From Candidatus Entotheonellaceae bacterium (GTDB lineage Bacteria; Tectomicrobia; Entotheonellia; Entotheonellales; Entotheonellaceae): 64,000 nt of DNA. The stretch lies in assembly GCA_965238075.1 (NCBI GenBank), contig OZ250173.1:320001-384000 (forward strand). The letters are read 5' to 3'. This document shows, in pieces, positions 37,995-57,957 of this stretch. Position numbers and translations under genes: made by a program. Numbering within the stretch: the stretch's first letter is position 1; every line of letters begins with the position of its first letter. The notes below the pieces were generated by a model, which did not search any database, was not told the DNA's origin, and saw nothing but the letters and a program-made list of their open reading frames with translations.

Positions 37995-38702
37995 GCGCGA
38001 CAGCAGGAGAGCCCAGTGCTGGCGCTAATCAATTTTCAGCTGCTGTAATCCGCTGGTAATGACAGCGGCGCCGGCACCTGCCACTGCGACCGCCTGCTTG
38101 CACATCTTCGTCTCGCCTCTTCATAAGCCGGACGCCGGAATTTCCCACCCCTCACTATCATTCCCTTCACCGCACCAATGATCAGCATTGACAACAGGCC
38201 ATTCGCGTGCGTGTTTCGATTTCTTCCAGCACAGCACGATGCGACTGCATGCGTTCCTTCAGCCTAAGATGCGCTGACCTCATGAAAGCTTCGAAATGGC
38301 AGCTCGCTTACCGTGACGAGGCGTTGGCCTGCGGATCTCCAATCCCGGAGCCAGTATGGTATCCCGGGCAGCTTGGCCCAGACACGCGCTTGTGCAGAAA
38401 TTCCGACACGCCACCGAATTGACAACGATCCTTCAGCTGCCTGAATCTCCAAAAAGTGACTGCATCGACGCCGGGTCTGGAATCCCATTGCCGAAGGGGA
38501 TATTGCGCGGTACGTGATGGGCCGCTTTCGGAACGGTGCGAAGCCCGAACTGGAGTAAGGACGAGATGTTACGCAGCCTTGAGGAGCTGGAGTTCATCAA
38601 AGGCATGACGCACGGTCTTGAGATAGAGCCGTGTCCACAAGGCAACGTGATTGAGCCCATGGGTCACACTGAGCCATGTCAAGCGGCACGCGGCAAATCG
38701 CC

Positions 38703-38744
38703 AGAGCCTGCCCCGGACTTGATCCGGGGTACGGGGCAGGCTCT
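38703..38744. repeat. Palindromic intergenic repeat
   Basis: AGAGCCTGCCCCG-GACTTGATCCGGGGTA-CGGGGCAGGCTCT; related partial copy at 63478-63508. Confidence 0.7.
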
Positions 38745-38792
38745 GTTTGGGGTCGGTTGCGGAAAAGGGCGAAATGACACGCTAAGGAGAAG

Positions 38793-41221
38793 TCAACGTC
38801 TTTTTGGCCACCTGTATTCGCCGGTAAGCAGGATGTGGCCCCATCCGAGGGGCGAGGTGTGTGGCAGGAGCTCGGGGACGACGGGCAGACCGGCGTGTCT
38901 TCGCCTGGCGACCGCTTCGCCCAGCCGGGCGATGTTCCAGTAGATGACGATGGCAGCGAGCAGGTTGAGGCCTGCCATGCGGTAGTGCTGTCCCTCCGTG
39001 CTGCGATCCCTGATTTTTCCCTGGCGGCCGATGCGCAAGGCGTTCTTCAGGGCGTGGTGGGATTCTCCCTTGTTCAGGCCGATCTGGGCACGCCGCTGCA
39101 TGGCCGGGTCCAGCGCCCAATCGATCATGAAGAGGGTGCGCTCGATGCGGCCGATTTCGCGCAGCGCCGCGGCGAGGTCATTACGGCGCGGGTAGGCGGC
39201 CAGCTTGCGCAGGATCAGACTCGGGGCGACCGTGCCGGCGGCCAGGGTCGCCCCCAGCCGCAGAACGTCGGGCCAGTTCGACGCGATCAGCGATTGTCGG
39301 AGTTTGCCGCCGATCGGGCCGCGCAGTTCCTTCGGGCAAGCGGCCGGCTCGAAGACGGAGATGCGCTTGGAAGGCAGATCGCGGATGCGCGGCACGAACC
39401 GGTAACCCAGGATCGAGGTGACGGCGAAGACGTGGTCGGTAAAACCGCCGGTGTCGGCGTACTGCTCGCGGATACGGCGGCCGGTCTCGTTCATCAGCAG
39501 GCCGTCCAGGATGTAAGGCGCTTCGTTGACCGTCGCCGGGATGATCTGCGTGGCGAAGGGTCCGAAGCGGTCCGACACGTGCGTGTACGCCTTCAGCCTG
39601 GGCTCGCTGCCGTACCTGGCATTGACCAGGTTCATGGCCTCGCCCTGGCGCGTGGTCGGAAAGAACTGGCCGTCGCTCGACGCGGTGGTTCCCATCCCCC
39701 AGAACGTCGCCATGGGCAGCTTGGCCTGTGCCTCGATCACCATCGCCAGCGCACGGTCCATGGCTTCGCCTTCGACATGCCAGCGCGACAGCCGCATGAG
39801 TTCCCAGTAGTCGTGGGTGTTGGTGGCGTCGGCCATCTTGCCGAGGCTGAGATTGATGCCTTCGGCCAGGAGCACGTTGAGCAAGCCGATCTTGTCGTTG
39901 CAGGGGGCGCCGGTGCGCAGATGGGACAGGACGGCAACCCCCCATAGCCTCTTTTCGCCCTTGGGCTGCGCATCGAGATAACGGTGCCGCTTGGAGGCCG
40001 GGCGCAGAAAGGCTCTCGGGCTGCTGTGGCTGCTGCCGTCGCGGATCAGCCTGGCGGCATCCAGCAGAGGCCGTGCAACCGGGGCGGCCTGGATATCGAG
40101 CGCCCGCAGCATTCGCGGGGCATAGCGTCGAAGGCGCCCGTGTCCCTGCGCCACGTGGGCCAGCGGGTCGTTCGACATCGTATCGGTCAAGCGTGCGGCC
40201 ACAGCCACCAGGTCGCTCAGCCCGTCCCAGCCCAGTTTTCCCGAAACGGCCTGTTCAAGCATGGCGGGTTGATGCCGGGCTTCGAGCAGTGCCTCGCCGA
40301 GATCGGCGAAGGATCGCAGGGTCCGGCGGACGGTTTTCCTGGCATCGTCGATGCGGGCATCGCAGAGTTTTTCTGCCTCGCGCCAGGTTCTGCTGACGAT
40401 GCGGTCATGGGTCTCGACGAGGGCGTCCGCAAGACCCGCCTGCCATTCCACGGCGCACACCGCCAGAATGGCCAGGCGGCGGCTGTCGAGCATCTCCCGC
40501 AGGCCGTCCGCGAAATAGCGTTCTCCCTGCCGCCTCAGGCGGGCAACGCGGTGGGCGGGTACGCCCTCGATGATCCGCTCGGAGAGACCGAGACGCTGCA
40601 GAAACTCCAGTCGATCCAGCAAGCGCCCGGCGACCGCGGCATTGTTGCCCGGCTCGGACTGCCGCAGCCAGACGAACCGCGTCACGCGGTTGTCCAGTGT
40701 TTCCGAAAGCAGCCCGTCGAGAGCCGTTCGTGCCGCGGTGTCGAGACGGCAGGCAGGATGAGTTGCCTTCGGCGGCATTCCTCGACGAGCCGTCTTGCCA
40801 GCTCCTCGTTGGACCGCGCCTCCTCGGCCTGCCCGTCGAGCCAGCCCTTCAGGTGCCGCGCCGCGCGTCCGGCGAACGTGCGGTAGCCGTAGATCGAACG
40901 CAGCGCCGTCATGTGTTCCTGGCGCGTCTGTCGCCGCGCCGCATAGGGCAGCAGCGACTCCACCGCGATGCCCAGCTGGACACCGACGAATTCCACTACC
41001 GGCGACGGGATCAGTTCGCCGGGCTGCAGCACGCGACCGGGATGGCGTAGGGCACAAAGCTGAAGGGCGAAGCCGAGGCGGTTTTCGGCGCGGCGGCGCC
41101 GGCCGATGTGTTCCAGATCATCATCAGCCAAGGTGTAGTGCTTTCGGAGCGACGTCTCATCGACCGGGAGATCGACCAAGGCGGAGCGCTGGCGGTCCGT
41201 GAGAATGGTTCGGCGGGGCAT
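38793..41221 (-). pseudogene. tnpA: Tn3-family transposase, frameshifted and internally deleted
   Basis: MPRRTILT...ENRLGFALQLC; frame change near 40750; SSDGQ, YADTGG, GRIERT, LNKGE motifs; about 810 codons. Confidence 0.9.
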
Positions 41222-41263: not shown

Positions 41264-41854
41264 TCAGGCGTCGAGGAGCCGTCCTTGAGCGTGCCGTCGG
41301 CGTGCAGGTAATGGTAGAGCGTGCTCGTGGGAATGCTGCCAAGCTCACGGCAGATGTCGGGTATCGAGCGCGTCTGGTCGGCCATGAGGTTCTGGGCGTA
41401 GCGCAGCTTCTCGGGGGTCATGACGCGGGGACGGCCGCCTTTGCGTCCACGCCCGCGCCGCCTTGACACCCTCGCGGATGCGCTGTCGGATGACGTTGCG
41501 TTCCATTTCCGCGAAGGCTGCCTGGATCTGCAGAAAGGCGCGGCCCGCCGGCGCGGTGGTGTCCATCGGTGAATTGAGGGCGCGGAACCCGACGCCGCGG
41601 TGGTCGAGGTCGTCGATCAGGGCGATGAGTTCGCCCGCCCGGCGGCCCAGACGGTCGAGGTCGAGGACGACAAGGACGCCGCCCTGGCGCAGGTAATCGA
41701 GACAGGCGGCCAAGTTCGGTCGGTCAGAGGCGGCGCCGGAAGCACGGTCCTCGAACACGCGCTCGCATCCAGCGTCGTTGAGGGCGTCGAGCTGGCGGTC
41801 GAGTATCTGACGGCCTTCGGCGGTGGATACGCGGGCGTAGCCAATGAGGCCCAT
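41264..41854 (-). pseudogene. tnpR: Serine resolvase, frameshifted
   Basis: IGYARVST, LDRLGR, AEMER; GRKGGRP and the HTH (STLYHYL) lie in another frame. Confidence 0.88.
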
Positions 41855-41993
41855 GGGGTGATGTCCTCGCGGTCTCGAAAACGTTGTCTTGAGCGTATTT
41901 TATCGTAAAAAGATATTTTCGGGGTTGTCGGGAAGATTTCGCAGCAAAAGGCGGGTCGTGAGGGCGTACTTCAGCGAGTCACGACAAAGAACT

Positions 41994-43666
41994 CAGACTG
42001 TGTGAAAACACCCTTTCTTGAAACCCACATACCGAACACGGGATACTGAGAACCATGGCACATATCACAGGTGATGACCGTTCTCAGATTCTGCTTCTTC
42101 CAGAAACCGTGGAAGACTATGGCGGCCCCGACAACCCGGTGCGCTTCGTCGACGCGTTCGTCGATGGCCTTGATCTGGAGGCTGCCGGCTTCCGGCGCGT
42201 ACAACCTAAAGCGACAGGACGACCGGGGTACGATCCGGGCGATCTCCTGAAGCTCTACATCTATGGGTACCTCAACCGCATCCGTTCCAGCCGGCGCCTG
42301 GAGGTGGAGACCCACCGAAACCTCGAGGTGATCTGGCTTCTGCGTCGCCTCCGGCCCGACTTCAAGACCATCGCGGATTTCCGGCGCGACAACCGCAGGG
42401 CGTTTCGCCAAGTGTTCCGGAGCTTTGTATCGCTGTGCCGCGAACTCGGCCTGTACGGACGTGAACTCCTGGCTGTCGACGGCACCCGCATCAAGGCGGT
42501 AAACAGCCGCAAGCGCAATTTCACGCGGGCGGGGCTCGACCACAGGCTCAAGAAGACTGACGAGCGCCTTGAGCGCTACCTGAAGGAAATGGACGAAGCG
42601 GACGCCCAGGATTCCGGCGGCAGCGCGAAATCCACCACCGACCTCGCGGCGAAAATCGAATCGCTGCGTAAACGCCGAGCAGCGCTTCAGGCTCATAAGA
42701 AGGCGCTCGAACAGAGCGGCGAGAGTCAACTCTCGCTCACCGACCCGGATGCCCGGGCGATGGAAGCACGCACCCGCGTTGCAGTGGGGTACAACGCCCA
42801 GATCGCGGTGGACACCAAACACAATCTGATCGCTGAACAGCAGGTCCACAGCAAGGTCTCGGACCTGGGCCTGCTGACCGAAACTGCGAGCGTGGCGCGT
42901 GGGAATCTCAAGGCGGAACGCATGGCTGTCGTGGCTGACAAAGGCTACTTCAAGATCGAGGACATCGAAGCTTGCGAAGCCGAGGGCGTAACGCCGTACG
43001 TGCCAAAGCCCAACCGCAGCCCTGCCCGTTCAGCCGGCCGCTTCCCGAAGTCGGCGTTCCATTACGACAAGGAAACCGACACCTATATATGTCCCAACGG
43101 CCAGCGCCTGTCGCCCACGTACGCCACGAAAGTCCGCAACACGCCTTTGACATGTTACGCCAATTTCCAGGCTTGTCGGGAATGCGGCATACGCGAGCGC
43201 TGCACGAAGTCATATTACCGAGGCATTGTGCGCTACGTGAACGAGGCCGTTCTGGAACGCATGGCGGAACGGCTCGCCAGGCGCCCCGAGATCCTGAAGC
43301 GCCGTGGCGAGAGCGTGGAGCATCCTTTCGGCTCCATCAAACAGTGGATGGGACAGGGCGCGTTCCTGATGCGGCGCCTTGAGAACGTGCGCGGCGAGTT
43401 CAGCCTTACCGCCCTTGCGTACAACATGCGGCGCGCGATCAACCTTGTCGGAGTTCCCACGCTCGTTGAAGCCGCGCACCCCTGATCGGGGTGTCCCCGG
43501 CCAAATCTCACCTCACACCGCGATTGAACCACCCAGTGCCTGCCATGAGCGACAAATCCGAGCCGCCTGGATTCCCCTGCAGCCGAATTATGGATGCTAC
43601 CAATCGACGACCGCATCACCTCTGAAGAGCTCAGGTCTCGCGCCCCGTGACTTTTCGCACGGTCTG
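41994..43666 (+). mobile_element. IS1182-family insertion sequence
   Basis: TIRs CAGACTGTGTGAAAA / TTTTCGCACGGTCTG (13/15); 4-bp target duplication AACT. Confidence 0.92.
42055..43485 (+). CDS. IS1182-family transposase
   Basis: GRPGYDP, SSRRLE, PDFKTIADFR, DGTRIKA, SLTDPDAR, ADKGY, VEHPFG; uninterrupted. Confidence 0.95.
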   Translation: MAHITGDDRSQILLLPETVEDYGGPDNPVRFVDAFVDGLDLEAAGFRRVQPKATGRPGYDPGDLLKLYIYGYLNRIRSSRRLEVETHRNLEVIWLLRRLRPDFKTIADFRRDNRRAFRQVFRSFVSLCRELGLYGRELLAVDGTRIKAVNSRKRNFTRAGLDHRLKKTDERLERYLKEMDEADAQDSGGSAKSTTDLAAKIESLRKRRAALQAHKKALEQSGESQLSLTDPDARAMEARTRVAVGYNAQIAVDTKHNLIAEQQVHSKVSDLGLLTETASVARGNLKAERMAVVADKGYFKIEDIEACEAEGVTPYVPKPNRSPARSAGRFPKSAFHYDKETDTYICPNGQRLSPTYATKVRNTPLTCYANFQACRECGIRERCTKSYYRGIVRYVNEAVLERMAERLARRPEILKRRGESVEHPFGSIKQWMGQGAFLMRRLENVRGEFSLTALAYNMRRAINLVGVPTLVEAAHP

Positions 43667-44078
43667 AACTGTTTGTCGTGGACCCGGAAGCGGGTTATAG
43701 GGGGCGGAAAAGAGAGCCCTCGAGGCTTAGAGTGTCATTTCGCCCTTTTCCGCAACCGACCCCGTTTTGTGAGAGGGTCCGATGCGGGTAGGCGGCATTC
43801 TGACGGTCTCGGAACCAGAGTGCCTACCCCCCGCTGTGCCTGAGGCGCCTCCGCCATCGCCGGTCCAGTTAAACGGGAAGTGCGTGAAGCTGGGCTCCAG
43901 GCTACGCCGTCTAACCCCACTGATTCGATGGGCAAGTTTCCAAGCCGAGACTTTCTTGGACCCAGCGGCCCAACATCGCGGGCAAGGCATAACTTGCTTA
44001 TCCCACAAGGTCGGGATGGATCACTTTGAGGGTGATGGCTCAGCACGGCTCATGGCGTAGATAAGCCTGCCGGACATT

Positions 44079-48600: not shown

Positions 48601-49272
48601 TTAAGCGTTGCTGAGTTGACGGCCGGCGTCTTTCGGCGACCCGGTGCCGTTGGCGTATTGACCTCGGGGCATGAGATGGCGAGAGCGCATGAAATGATAG
48701 AGCGTCGAGTGGTCTACTCCGGTGATCTTGGCAATCGACGCCTTTGAGACCTTGAGGTCCAGGAGCCTTTGAATTTCGTCTTCCTTGCCATTGAATCTTG
48801 ACTGCCCCAATTGTCCCTTTGGACGCCCCAGGCGTTTACCCGAAGCCCGTGCTGCCGCCAGTCCTTCCTTCGTTCGCATGGAAATGAGTTCCCGCTCGAT
48901 TTCCGCAAACAAGCCGAACAACGTCACCATGACCTTGCTGTGCAAATCCTGCTTGCCCGCCAGACGAATGCCTTCCTTGATCGCCAGAAACCGGACCTGT
49001 TGCTTCAGCAAGGCATCCACCGTGGCAATCACCTCGCCTACCGAGCGGCCCATGCGGCTCAACTCGCTGACAACGAGGGTGTCGCCCGGCTCCAGCCGTG
49101 CCATCCAGAGGTCGATCTGTCGTGCTTTGGGCGAGCGCCTCGACGACACGCTGAGCTCCATGAAGGCGCTGACCTCGAACTTTTCCTGGCGGGCAAACTC
49201 CAGGATCGCCAGGCGTTGATTTCCGACATCCTGCGAGTCCTTCGAGACGCGTAAATAGGCGATCGTCTTCAT
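48601..49272 (-). CDS. Serine recombinase (resolvase/invertase)
   Basis: AYLRVS, SELSRMGRS, AEIERELISMRTKEGL, LGRP, C-terminal HTH. Confidence 0.93.
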   Translation of the reverse strand: MKTIAYLRVSKDSQDVGNQRLAILEFARQEKFEVSAFMELSVSSRRSPKARQIDLWMARLEPGDTLVVSELSRMGRSVGEVIATVDALLKQQVRFLAIKEGIRLAGKQDLHSKVMVTLFGLFAEIERELISMRTKEGLAAARASGKRLGRPKGQLGQSRFNGKEDEIQRLLDLKVSKASIAKITGVDHSTLYHFMRSRHLMPRGQYANGTGSPKDAGRQLSNA

Positions 49273-49624
49273 GGCGCGGCCATTCTGTGGAAGCTATCCT
49301 TTATTTGGGACTATTTCCTACGGTATGGATGGAGTAATCCTGAGCCTTTCCTTTCGGCATATCCGTTTGGAAGAAACGTTCGTTTTGTCCTGACAAGTCA
49401 TGGCCGCCATCGACCCTGAGAGCCCCTCTCGTTTGATCCGAGGCACCGGGTTCCCGGAAACTGAAGGCATGATTGATTGGAAGTTTGCCAACAGTATCCG
49501 GTCCTTTGATGACACGGCGCCCCACCGGTTGATCCATCCAGGCTTACAAGAGGTCATCCAGTCAGAGTTCGCCCCCGTGTACAATTCTTTGTACAAATCT
49601 TGCGATGATGCCAGCATCTCTACA

Positions 49625-56776: not shown

Positions 56777-57638
56777 GGCCCAGTAACAACATAGCTGTCA
56801 TAGAGTGCCAAATTGACGGTGCTCGCCGCAGAGCACTCTGACTCACCCTTTGACTCATGTCTCCCACAGTCCCTCGAATCGAACGCCAGCGACACGCGTA
56901 TAGTGAACCGTGTGTTTGGGGTCTCGATGCCCAAGATGGTCCTGGATCAGCCTCAGGTCATAGCCTTGATTGGCCAGATAAAACCCACAGGAATGCCGCA
57001 GCATGTGGGGATTAGGCGCACCGAGTCCGGCACGCCGGGCAGCGCGCCGATGAGGTAGTTGACCGATTGTCGGGTCATCGGCTGCCCGCGCTCAGACAGA
57101 AACAGCCACGGCAACGCGTCGTGGCGCGTGTGCAGGTAGCGCTTGATCGCCCGCAGTTCATCGCCGGCGATCGGATGTTCCACAGACAGGCCACTTTTGA
57201 GGCGCCGAATCCACACCCAGGCGCGTTTGAGGTTCAGGTCCTGGCGCCGCATGCGGACGGCTTCGCTGACGCGCAAGCCGTGGCGATACATCATGAGCAA
57301 CAGCAGAAAATCCCGGACGCCATGGCGGTCTTTCCTGGCCGCTTCAAGGAGGGCATCCATTTCGGCATCGCTTAGGAAGTTGCGGGCGCGTTCATGCCCG
57401 TCCGTCAGCCAGACATCCTCACTTTTTACATTTCGCCTTCTGGGCACGACGTCTCACCCCCTCTCGAAGCCGCGCGGTGACTCGCCCTGTTACCCGGCAC
57501 TCTTGACAAAAGGCGTGTTAGGTAAAGAGAGTCAGGCAGCCACCTGTCTTTCAATTGACAAGCGCTCACGCATGTCCAGCTCAAAGATGCCGTAGCCCGA
57601 AGTCTGGCACCTTATGACCGCTATGTTGTTACTGGGCC
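56777..57638. mobile_element. 862-bp TIR-bounded, transposase-less cassette
   Basis: 34-bp TIRs GGCCCAGTAACAACATAGC..., 31/34 identical, at 56777-56810 and 57605-57638. Confidence 0.8.
56855..57447 (-). pseudogene. FimB/FimE-like tyrosine recombinase, single frameshift near 57043
   Basis: RHGLRVSE in the first frame; [25 protein letters not shown] in the second. Confidence 0.88.
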
Positions 57639-57688
57639 GAAAAGGTGGGTCGTGAGAGCGTACCGCAGCGTGTCGCGACAAAGAGTTG

Positions 57689-57840
57689 GATACTGTTGGC
57701 GAACCCCAATTGAATCGCCAAGTGGCCAAGTTTGGACAATGGCCGCGAGCCCCGACATGGGCCTCACCATTGGCATTGCTGGCTCCCTCCTGTACGACAA
57801 GGGGGGCAAATGACAGTAAGCAGGGTTTGCCAACAGTATC
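57689..57840. mobile_element. 152-bp MITE
   Basis: 18-bp TIRs GATACTGTTGGC(G/A)AACCC (17/18); 6-bp duplication GAGTTG on both sides. Confidence 0.85.
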
Positions 57841-57957
57841 GAGTTGTTTGTCGTGAATGATTCCTGCCATCCAGACCCGGTCGAGAGAGCTGCGAGGGTA
57901 GGGAAAGAGGGCTCGGGTGCGTGGAGTGTCTTTTCGCCCTTTTCCGCAACCGACCCC

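Follow-up and report, generated by a model that had tools for sequence, protein, structure and literature searches.

Tn5053 and Tn402 insert into the res regions of Tn21-type transposons and plasmids. They need the resolvase–res complex and the TniABQ machinery, and their positions vary in or near res. IS4321 and IS5075, which belong to the IS1111 group, lie in the terminal repeats of Tn21-family transposons. Here we analyzed a 64,000-nucleotide window from a Candidatus Entotheonellaceae bacterium (assembly GCA_965238075.1, contig OZ250173.1, positions 320,001 to 384,000 of the forward strand; coordinates below count from the first nucleotide of the window). An insertion sequence (IS) assigned to the IS1182 family and a miniature inverted-repeat transposable element (MITE) occupy the same spacer of two homologous palindromes, each in a decayed Tn3-family element. 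The IS resembles Tn5053/Tn402 in the outcome, a passenger element inside another transposon, but has a single DDE transposase and sits at the exact dyad centre, and most targets of its clade are not res. Like IS4321/IS5075 and the IS1111-attC group, it is found at a defined sequence of another mobile element; those elements differ in having a DEDD transposase, in being sequence- and orientation-specific, and in making no duplication. We put at roughly three in four the probability that the IS and the MITE are both IS1182-family elements placed by DDE transposases on the dyad axis of short palindromes, with no resolvase needed. The case adds a new instance to a target-selective habit that is already known and does not reveal a new way of hunting recombination sites. 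No IS1182 element in res site I is known to us from the literature, but full-text literature searches cannot exclude one.

For the IS1182 family, insertion into palindromes or hairpins has been described before, and so has the repeated use of one hairpin. According to the available part of one study, IS1272 and TnSha1 target hairpins without a primary consensus, and one repA terminator was struck at least four times independently, in both orientations (PMC4923244). Excerpts of a second paper state that IS1272 targets inverted repeats (PMC5678879). For palindromic targets in the family, both papers refer to Siguier et al. 2015. As far as these excerpts go, the staphylococcal IS1272/TnSha1 are like the elements described here in domain content, in targeting inverted repeats or hairpins, and in hitting one hairpin repeatedly. 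The difference lies in the geometry. IS1272, as the same excerpts describe it, enters at the stem, with loss of part of the hairpin and without a duplication, whereas the elements here occupy the dyad axis, leave both arms in place and have duplicated the central 4 or 6 bp. Another member of the family is ISPse1 of Paracoccus seriniphilus, a 1653-bp element with 16-bp terminal repeats and a 4-bp duplication in the part of the report available (PMC3281130); from this description, it shares the IS1182 family, a similar length and the 4-bp duplication with the IS studied here. A target-site rule for ISPse1 was not seen in PMC3281130, in the text of which "palindrom" has 0 occurrences.

Two insertions on one dyad axis

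The IS spans 41994–43666 on the forward strand (1673 bp), is apparently intact, and carries a transposase open reading frame (ORF) of 476 residues at 42055–43485. Its ends are CAGACTGTGTGAAAAC and the reverse complement of CAGACCGTGCGAAAAG, which match at 14 of 18 positions. The tetranucleotide AACT is duplicated on both sides, at 41990–41993 and at 43667–43670, and the sequences beyond the duplication are CACGACAAAG and GTTTGTCGTG. The left copy represents the central 4 bp of the putative site I and brackets the expected crossover dinucleotide. Outside the duplication lie the two arms of a palindrome, the left one at 41980–41989 (CACGACAAA(G)) and the right one at 43671–43680 ((G)TTTGTCGTG). 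That an IS1182 element sits, flanked by AACT, in the centre of a res-like palindrome, as a sequence-only reading of the window had proposed, was thereby confirmed to the base. We considered whether the arms might be part of the IS; this is ruled out here, as the palindrome is present in empty form in 39 loci.

The second insertion lies in the palindrome of another Tn3-family element. A 152-bp MITE at 57689–57840 has the ends GATACTGTTGGC(G/A)AACCC and GAGTTG on either side, at 57683–57688 and 57841–57846; it is non-autonomous and derives from a second IS1182-type clade. Here the duplication comprises the whole 6-bp spacer of the putative site I. The left arm (CGCGACAAA) is located at 57674–57682, and the right arm is again TTTGTCGTG, at 57847–57855. 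Once both inserts are excised, the sequence from 41946 onward aligns by blastn with that from 57640 onward with 50/58 identities across the junction. Hence the earlier claim of a second Tn3 element with a MITE in the same 6-bp spacer is borne out. The IS and the MITE lie in one spacer of homologous 9+6+9 palindromes; the former duplicated its central 4 bp, the latter all 6 bp, and both cuts are symmetric about one dyad axis. The two insertions are independent, as had also been claimed, because the elements, the duplication lengths and the spacer sequences all differ.

The locus can be regarded as a natural experiment, in which one palindrome was struck by two distant IS1182 clades with 4-bp and 6-bp staggers, both centred on the dyad. 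The pattern is consistent with recognition of a symmetric target by a transposase complex that is itself symmetric.

Palindromic targets of related elements

By blastn and tblastn, the IS is single-copy in the source genome, and the MITE is single-copy as well. There is therefore no within-genome table of empty sites, and the target sites of relatives were compiled instead. For the IS clade, 80 of at least 589 transposase relatives were sampled (43–72% identity). Both IS ends were recognized in 58 of the 80, and removal of two copies with short flanks (<30 nt) and two duplicates left 54 sites, of which 38 have a direct 4-bp duplication and 16 do not. We then scored the pairing between the 10-nt arms around the 38 duplicated sites. 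The mean is 5.24, whereas 15,697 control positions taken from these flanks average 2.62. Pairing at 7 or more of the 10 positions is seen in 9 of the 38 sites, versus 0.66% of the controls (binomial, 3e-12). The 16 sites that lack a direct duplication are more palindromic still, with a mean pairing of 7.0. The inner arms have the consensus A-A-A-(C/T) N4 (G/A)-T-T-T, and the studied site matches it at 7 of 8 positions.

The MITE clade behaves alike. Among 19 non-duplicate copies with a duplication, the modal duplication length is 6 bp (10/19) and pairing averages 5.74; seven copies have 7 or more of the 10 positions paired, the control being that of the IS clade. Four more copies without direct duplication have strongly palindromic flanks.

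Whether or not a palindrome belongs to a recombinase, the insertion lies precisely on the dyad axis without exception. The target neighbourhoods of the IS clade are mostly ordinary chromosomal genes, and repeated hits on one palindrome are found among them. One position inside IS21-type istA genes was struck with four different duplications, namely GATG, CATT, AATC and CATG. A plasmid palindrome (GGCCGAACAC N4 GTGTTCGGAC) is occupied with two duplications, ACAA in one locus (L393) and GCAT in two others (L392, L012), and the target in L390 is a perfect 12+4+12 palindrome.

Several loci of this sample deserve mention in their own right. The istA hot spot lies in the N-terminal part of the gene and comprises L005, L007, L008, L028, L030, L031 and L034 (junctions at ~1135 and 2690–2800). 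In L393, the shared palindrome is situated ~690 bp downstream of a Tn3-type tnpA–recombinase pair. The 4 bp flanking the IS are reverse complements of each other, not direct repeats, in L008, L018, L040, L041 and L057. L034, L047 and L076 are grouped with these loci; throughout the group the outer flanks are near-perfect mirror images, and L034 has near-complementary flanks. We examined whether such flanks reflect an IS1272-like replacement mode and rejected it. Inversion between two oppositely oriented IS copies explains them best, and at least in L008 and L034 the same half of the istA target is found on both sides of the IS. Finally, in L046 (junction 2854) and L068 (junction 2726), one IS copy directly adjoins the end of a second, the 4-bp target having been used again, so that tandem elements result.

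The palindrome as res site I

To identify the palindrome, 80 loci encoding TnpR relatives were compared, and the dyad was scored with at most two mismatches per arm. An uninterrupted dyad, C(A/G)CGACAAA-CANNTG-TTTGTCGYG, is present in 39 of the 80 loci, mostly ~135–150 nt upstream of the tnpR start. Of the 41 loci that lack the dyad, most belong to a group at ≤57% identity or are truncated. Within the 39 loci, the site I arms are conserved and the central dinucleotide is variable. Single half-sites recur between the dyad and the gene. A left-type half-site is found at +71/72 (or +60) in 35 of the 39 relatives and a right-type half-site at +121 (or +110), directly before the start codon, in 36; both occur together in 34. 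In element 1, the carrier of the IS, whose res region was aligned with 25 relatives, the stretch from 41855 to 41979 on the reverse strand contains degenerate site I half-sites and would represent the rest of res with accessory sites II and III.

From these comparisons, the palindrome is very probably res site I of an element with the res-tnpR-tnpA order of the Tn21 type, to which TnpR would bind. This assignment is made because the dyad is the most symmetric and the most distal from tnpR, and because the half-sites recur at fixed offsets. The layout is as would be expected for a crossover site followed by accessory sites that overlap the tnpR promoter. The proposal that the palindrome is the site I farthest from tnpR thus gains support from the relatives. 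The pattern C(A/G)CGACAAA-CANNTG-TTTGTCGYG with half-sites at ~+71 and ~+121 offers a testable res architecture for widespread small Tn3-family transposons.

The palindrome might instead be another conserved dyad, such as a terminator or a different operator, in which case the targeting would still be generic. Read from outside in, the half-site is CACGACAAA, unlike the TGTCYNNTA-type consensus of gamma-delta/Tn3, and the restored sites as single-stranded DNA fold into hairpins at −8.9 and −7.5 kcal/mol. However, in 34 of the 39 relatives one and the same 9-mer is repeated, in both orientations and at fixed offsets, as far as the tnpR start. No other dyad is more distal to tnpR, and between the conserved arms the central dinucleotide is variable. 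All this would be expected of a crossover site with accessory sites. We consider a dyad of another kind unlikely.

Two observations on the relatives are of separate interest. In L236, L238, L239, L244 and L250, the res half-sites are ~500 bp farther from tnpR, as if ~0.5 kb had been inserted between. In L229 (~2355–2385), the right arm of site I and the spacer are kept while the left arm is unrelated sequence; this locus may have arisen when another partner recombined with it at the crossover point.

Is the recombination site itself the target?

The sequence-only reading had further proposed that IS1182-type elements target resolvase-bound site I or its hairpin. In such a case, the transposase would recognize the resolvase-bound site, the synapse or a structure made by the resolvase, in the manner of Tn5053/Tn402, and the IS would ride on Tn3 elements and plasmids. 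We therefore inspected how often recombinase sites are hit. A resolvase-domain gene was detected in the flanks of L010, L052, L062, L015 and L072 by tblastn or Pfam. The IS lies upstream of a recombinase gene start in 3 of the 54 IS-clade sites, at ~135–150 nt in L010, ~40–65 nt in L052 and ~305 nt in L062, and these are serine-recombinase genes. In the source genome (3.35 Mb), four Resolvase genes are present.

A number of observations weigh against generic placement on palindromes, and several of them favour the resolvase-dependent alternative. The fraction 3/54 is well above the ~0.3% of the genome that is so near resolvase genes. The sites in L010, L052 and the plasmid site L391 are 12+4+12 (28-bp) sites with TGTC...GACA outer ends, extending to TGTCCG...CGGACA in L391 and L010; these outlines presumably resemble resolvase or invertase sites. 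In the metagenomic contig L387, an IS end stands beside a site-I-like half, with the far side of the IS outside the locus. Both site I copies of the source genome are occupied, each by a single-copy element, and under uniform choice among ~22 top palindromes such a double hit has a probability of ~1 in 100. As for the palindrome rule itself, pairing stays below 7 of 10 positions at 29 of the 38 duplicated sites, so that the rule is a bias and not absolute. Base preference does not single out the site either: in a mononucleotide weight matrix built from 37 sites or from 12 close ones, the restored IS site ranks in the top 1.2% or 0.24%, respectively, and the restored sites overall rank in the top 0.13–1.2% of genome positions. 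Since base preference fails in this respect, dyad symmetry matters more, the pairing signal being the stronger of the two.

The wider survey argues in the other direction. For 51 of the 54 IS-clade sites, there is no recombinase gene start within ~350 nt. None of the six plasmid copies, which represent five distinct sites, lies directly upstream of a resolvase, and no insertion splits any of the 39 intact related copies of site I. A search of the species genomes with a junction pattern of arm, N4 and IS end gave 100 matches, nearly all by chance, with no clear second case among them. Four of these loci (three distinct sites) match at least 14 of 16 IS-end positions. The lengthened pattern gave three matches in metagenomes, one being the afore-mentioned L387 and the other two (L385, L386) representing one unrelated site. 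The IS encodes one DDE transposase in a single ORF and no TniB/TniQ-like targeting proteins. The local TnpR is without its DNA-binding domain, though it was perhaps intact when the IS arrived. Together with the exact dyad-axis position at palindromes of every kind, these data leave resolvase-dependent targeting not supported, and we regard it as quite improbable. The tabulated target sites of homologues, a check named beforehand in the sequence-only reading, place other copies at unrelated palindromes. What stands of that proposal is its hairpin wording, which is essentially right, although such targeting is generic for the family and already published.

Some candidates from the junction search were set aside. 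The arm in L337 resembles site I, but a clear right end is missing and no resolvase is encoded within 2.6 kb; in L297 and L295/L375 there is no such resemblance.

Why one site was struck twice

Strong palindromes are scarce in the source genome. It contains 50 perfect 9+6+9 palindromes and 241 positions with at least 9 of 10 paired positions in the arms around a 4-nt centre, of which only 20 have A/T-rich inner arms. The two site I copies are among the ~20 best targets of the genome. On the reading we prefer, in which DDE transposases seek short palindromes, a symmetric transposase complex would engage the symmetric target, which could be either duplex DNA recognized by its dyad symmetry or a cruciform or hairpin extruded from it. 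The strands would be cut at mirror positions, with a 4-bp stagger in the IS clade and mostly a 6-bp one in the MITE clade. What could have drawn two hits to this site are its 9–10-bp arms, the A-tract inner arms (AAA(C/G)-N4-GTTT) and the short spacer, and in dead mobile DNA the insertions would carry no cost. TnpR would not be needed for insertion. With the half-sites split by 1677 or 158 bp, a resolvase dimer would be prevented from forming at site I, and the carrier could not resolve cointegrates. For annotation, an IS within a res site need not mean res hunting.

Because the double hit is somewhat improbable (~1 in 100), we keep resolvase-dependent targeting as well as a related idea under consideration. 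The latter holds that crossover sites, such as res site I and hix-like sites by invertase genes, are a recurrent niche for dyad-seeking IS1182-family elements, because they are among the few strong, conserved palindromes on plasmids and transposons. In that case, the IS would not only abolish resolution of its carrier but also travel with it. We find this niche doubtful, though worth retaining. Should recombinase sites prove to be favoured among the targets, IS1182 elements would routinely give rise to transposons and plasmids that are defective in resolution.

It is also conceivable that there was no targeting, and that both inserts are chance landings which survived in a neutral graveyard of mobile DNA. 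The surrounding 20-kb stretch has this character: besides the two decayed Tn3 copies, it contains part of a tyrosine-recombinase gene, a further resolvase gene and the remains of a third MITE. Moreover, the IS and the MITE are each single-copy in the source genome, and a relative of the IS was found in only one of 100 related genomes, at 69% identity (L283), so that the IS may have arrived already inside a Tn3 element. Yet the chance of the same 6-bp spacer being struck twice within ~5 kb of neutral DNA is ~1 in 1000, and the strong dyad-centred bias among relatives contradicts random landing, which makes such a coincidence very hard to credit. Both inserts may have arrived already within the Tn3 copies. 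L283 was left unused as a target-site case, having only one recognizable end.

Carrier Tn3-family elements

Element 1 is bounded by 38-bp terminal inverted repeats of the GGGG...CTAAG type, identified by blastn between loci. The repeat at the tnpA end lies at 38749–38786 (forward strand), and that at the res end at 43726–43763 (reverse strand), 45 bp outside the palindrome. From the res end, the order is repeat, 45 bp, palindrome, ~125 bp, tnpR, tnpA and repeat, which makes element 1 a minimal tnpA-tnpR-res transposon of ~3.3 kb after decay. The tnpA pseudogene (38793–41221, reverse strand) is recognized by Pfam in two frames, DUF4158 at 40682–41221 and DDE_Tnp_Tn3 at 38793–41057, with E-values of 2.5e-50 and 8e-120, respectively. 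Relative to the closest relative, L202, it has deletions of ~62 and ~375 bp (blastn). The serine resolvase gene tnpR (41345–41854, reverse strand) shows only the N-terminal Resolvase domain in Pfam. It is frameshifted after about residue 134 and hence without the C-terminal DNA-binding domain, whereas translations of the intact TnpR in L202, L203, L204 and L206 are 199–200 residues long. L202 also encodes the closest TnpR found (92%), and TnpR relatives occur on Paracoccus plasmids. Both the terminal repeats and the Tn3-type DDE transposase place the carriers in the Tn3 family. A comparable small cryptic member, with 38-bp repeats like those of element 1, is Tn3434 of Paracoccus, which measures 3695 bp in the part of the report available (PMC3281130). 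The flanks of element 1, ...CTGTTT and GTTTTG..., have GTTT (4 bp) in common, compared with the 5-bp target duplication of the Tn3 family.

Element 2 is an end fragment consisting of the repeat, the palindrome and 45 bp of homology, with unrelated DNA beyond. Its sole end is the 38-bp repeat at 57920–57957 (reverse strand), and its res remnant occupies 57640–57682, the homology to element 1 ending at 57640 (blastn). Across the source genome, only three copies of the 38-bp repeat were retrieved, and an uninterrupted copy of the palindrome was not found there.

Family identity of the IS and the MITE

The element at 41994–43666 belongs to the IS1182 family, judging from its domains, its annotated homologues, and its size, ends and duplication, all of which fit. 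IS1182 elements are ~1.3–1.9 kb long (ISfinder). The transposase has an N-terminal DUF772 and a C-terminal DDE_Tnp_1_6 domain (1.7e-16 and 6.7e-15), plus DDE_Tnp_1. Plasmid homologues at 62–69% identity, all 40 among the matches listed, are annotated as "IS1182 family transposase", and those on Paracoccus plasmids are 66–69% identical.

The 18-nt end of the MITE was found at 122 or more places in many phyla. Paired ends of this type bound elements of 1.72–1.84 kb in eight loci, and the full-length partners in L116 and L137 encode DUF772 and DDE_Tnp_1_6. We assign the MITE to a second IS1182-type clade because the same ends bound elements with these two domains. The partner transposase is 27.6% identical to that of the IS over 294 residues.

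A third, decayed MITE copy lies at 49383–49498, its right part having an intact GTTTGCCAACAGTATC end. This fragment is 226 nt upstream of a second serine-recombinase gene (48601–49272, 223 residues, reverse strand). It was not counted as a res hit, as palindromic flanks are lacking and the left end has decayed. Next to element 2, a tyrosine recombinase fragment (56953–57447; Phage_integrase domain in a 164-residue ORF) adjoins the end of the homology to element 1. Finally, a GC-rich inverted repeat of ~45 nt (GCCAGAGCCTGCCCCGGA...TCCGGGG..GGGGCAGGCTCTG; 38700–38748) abuts the left end of element 1 on the outside.

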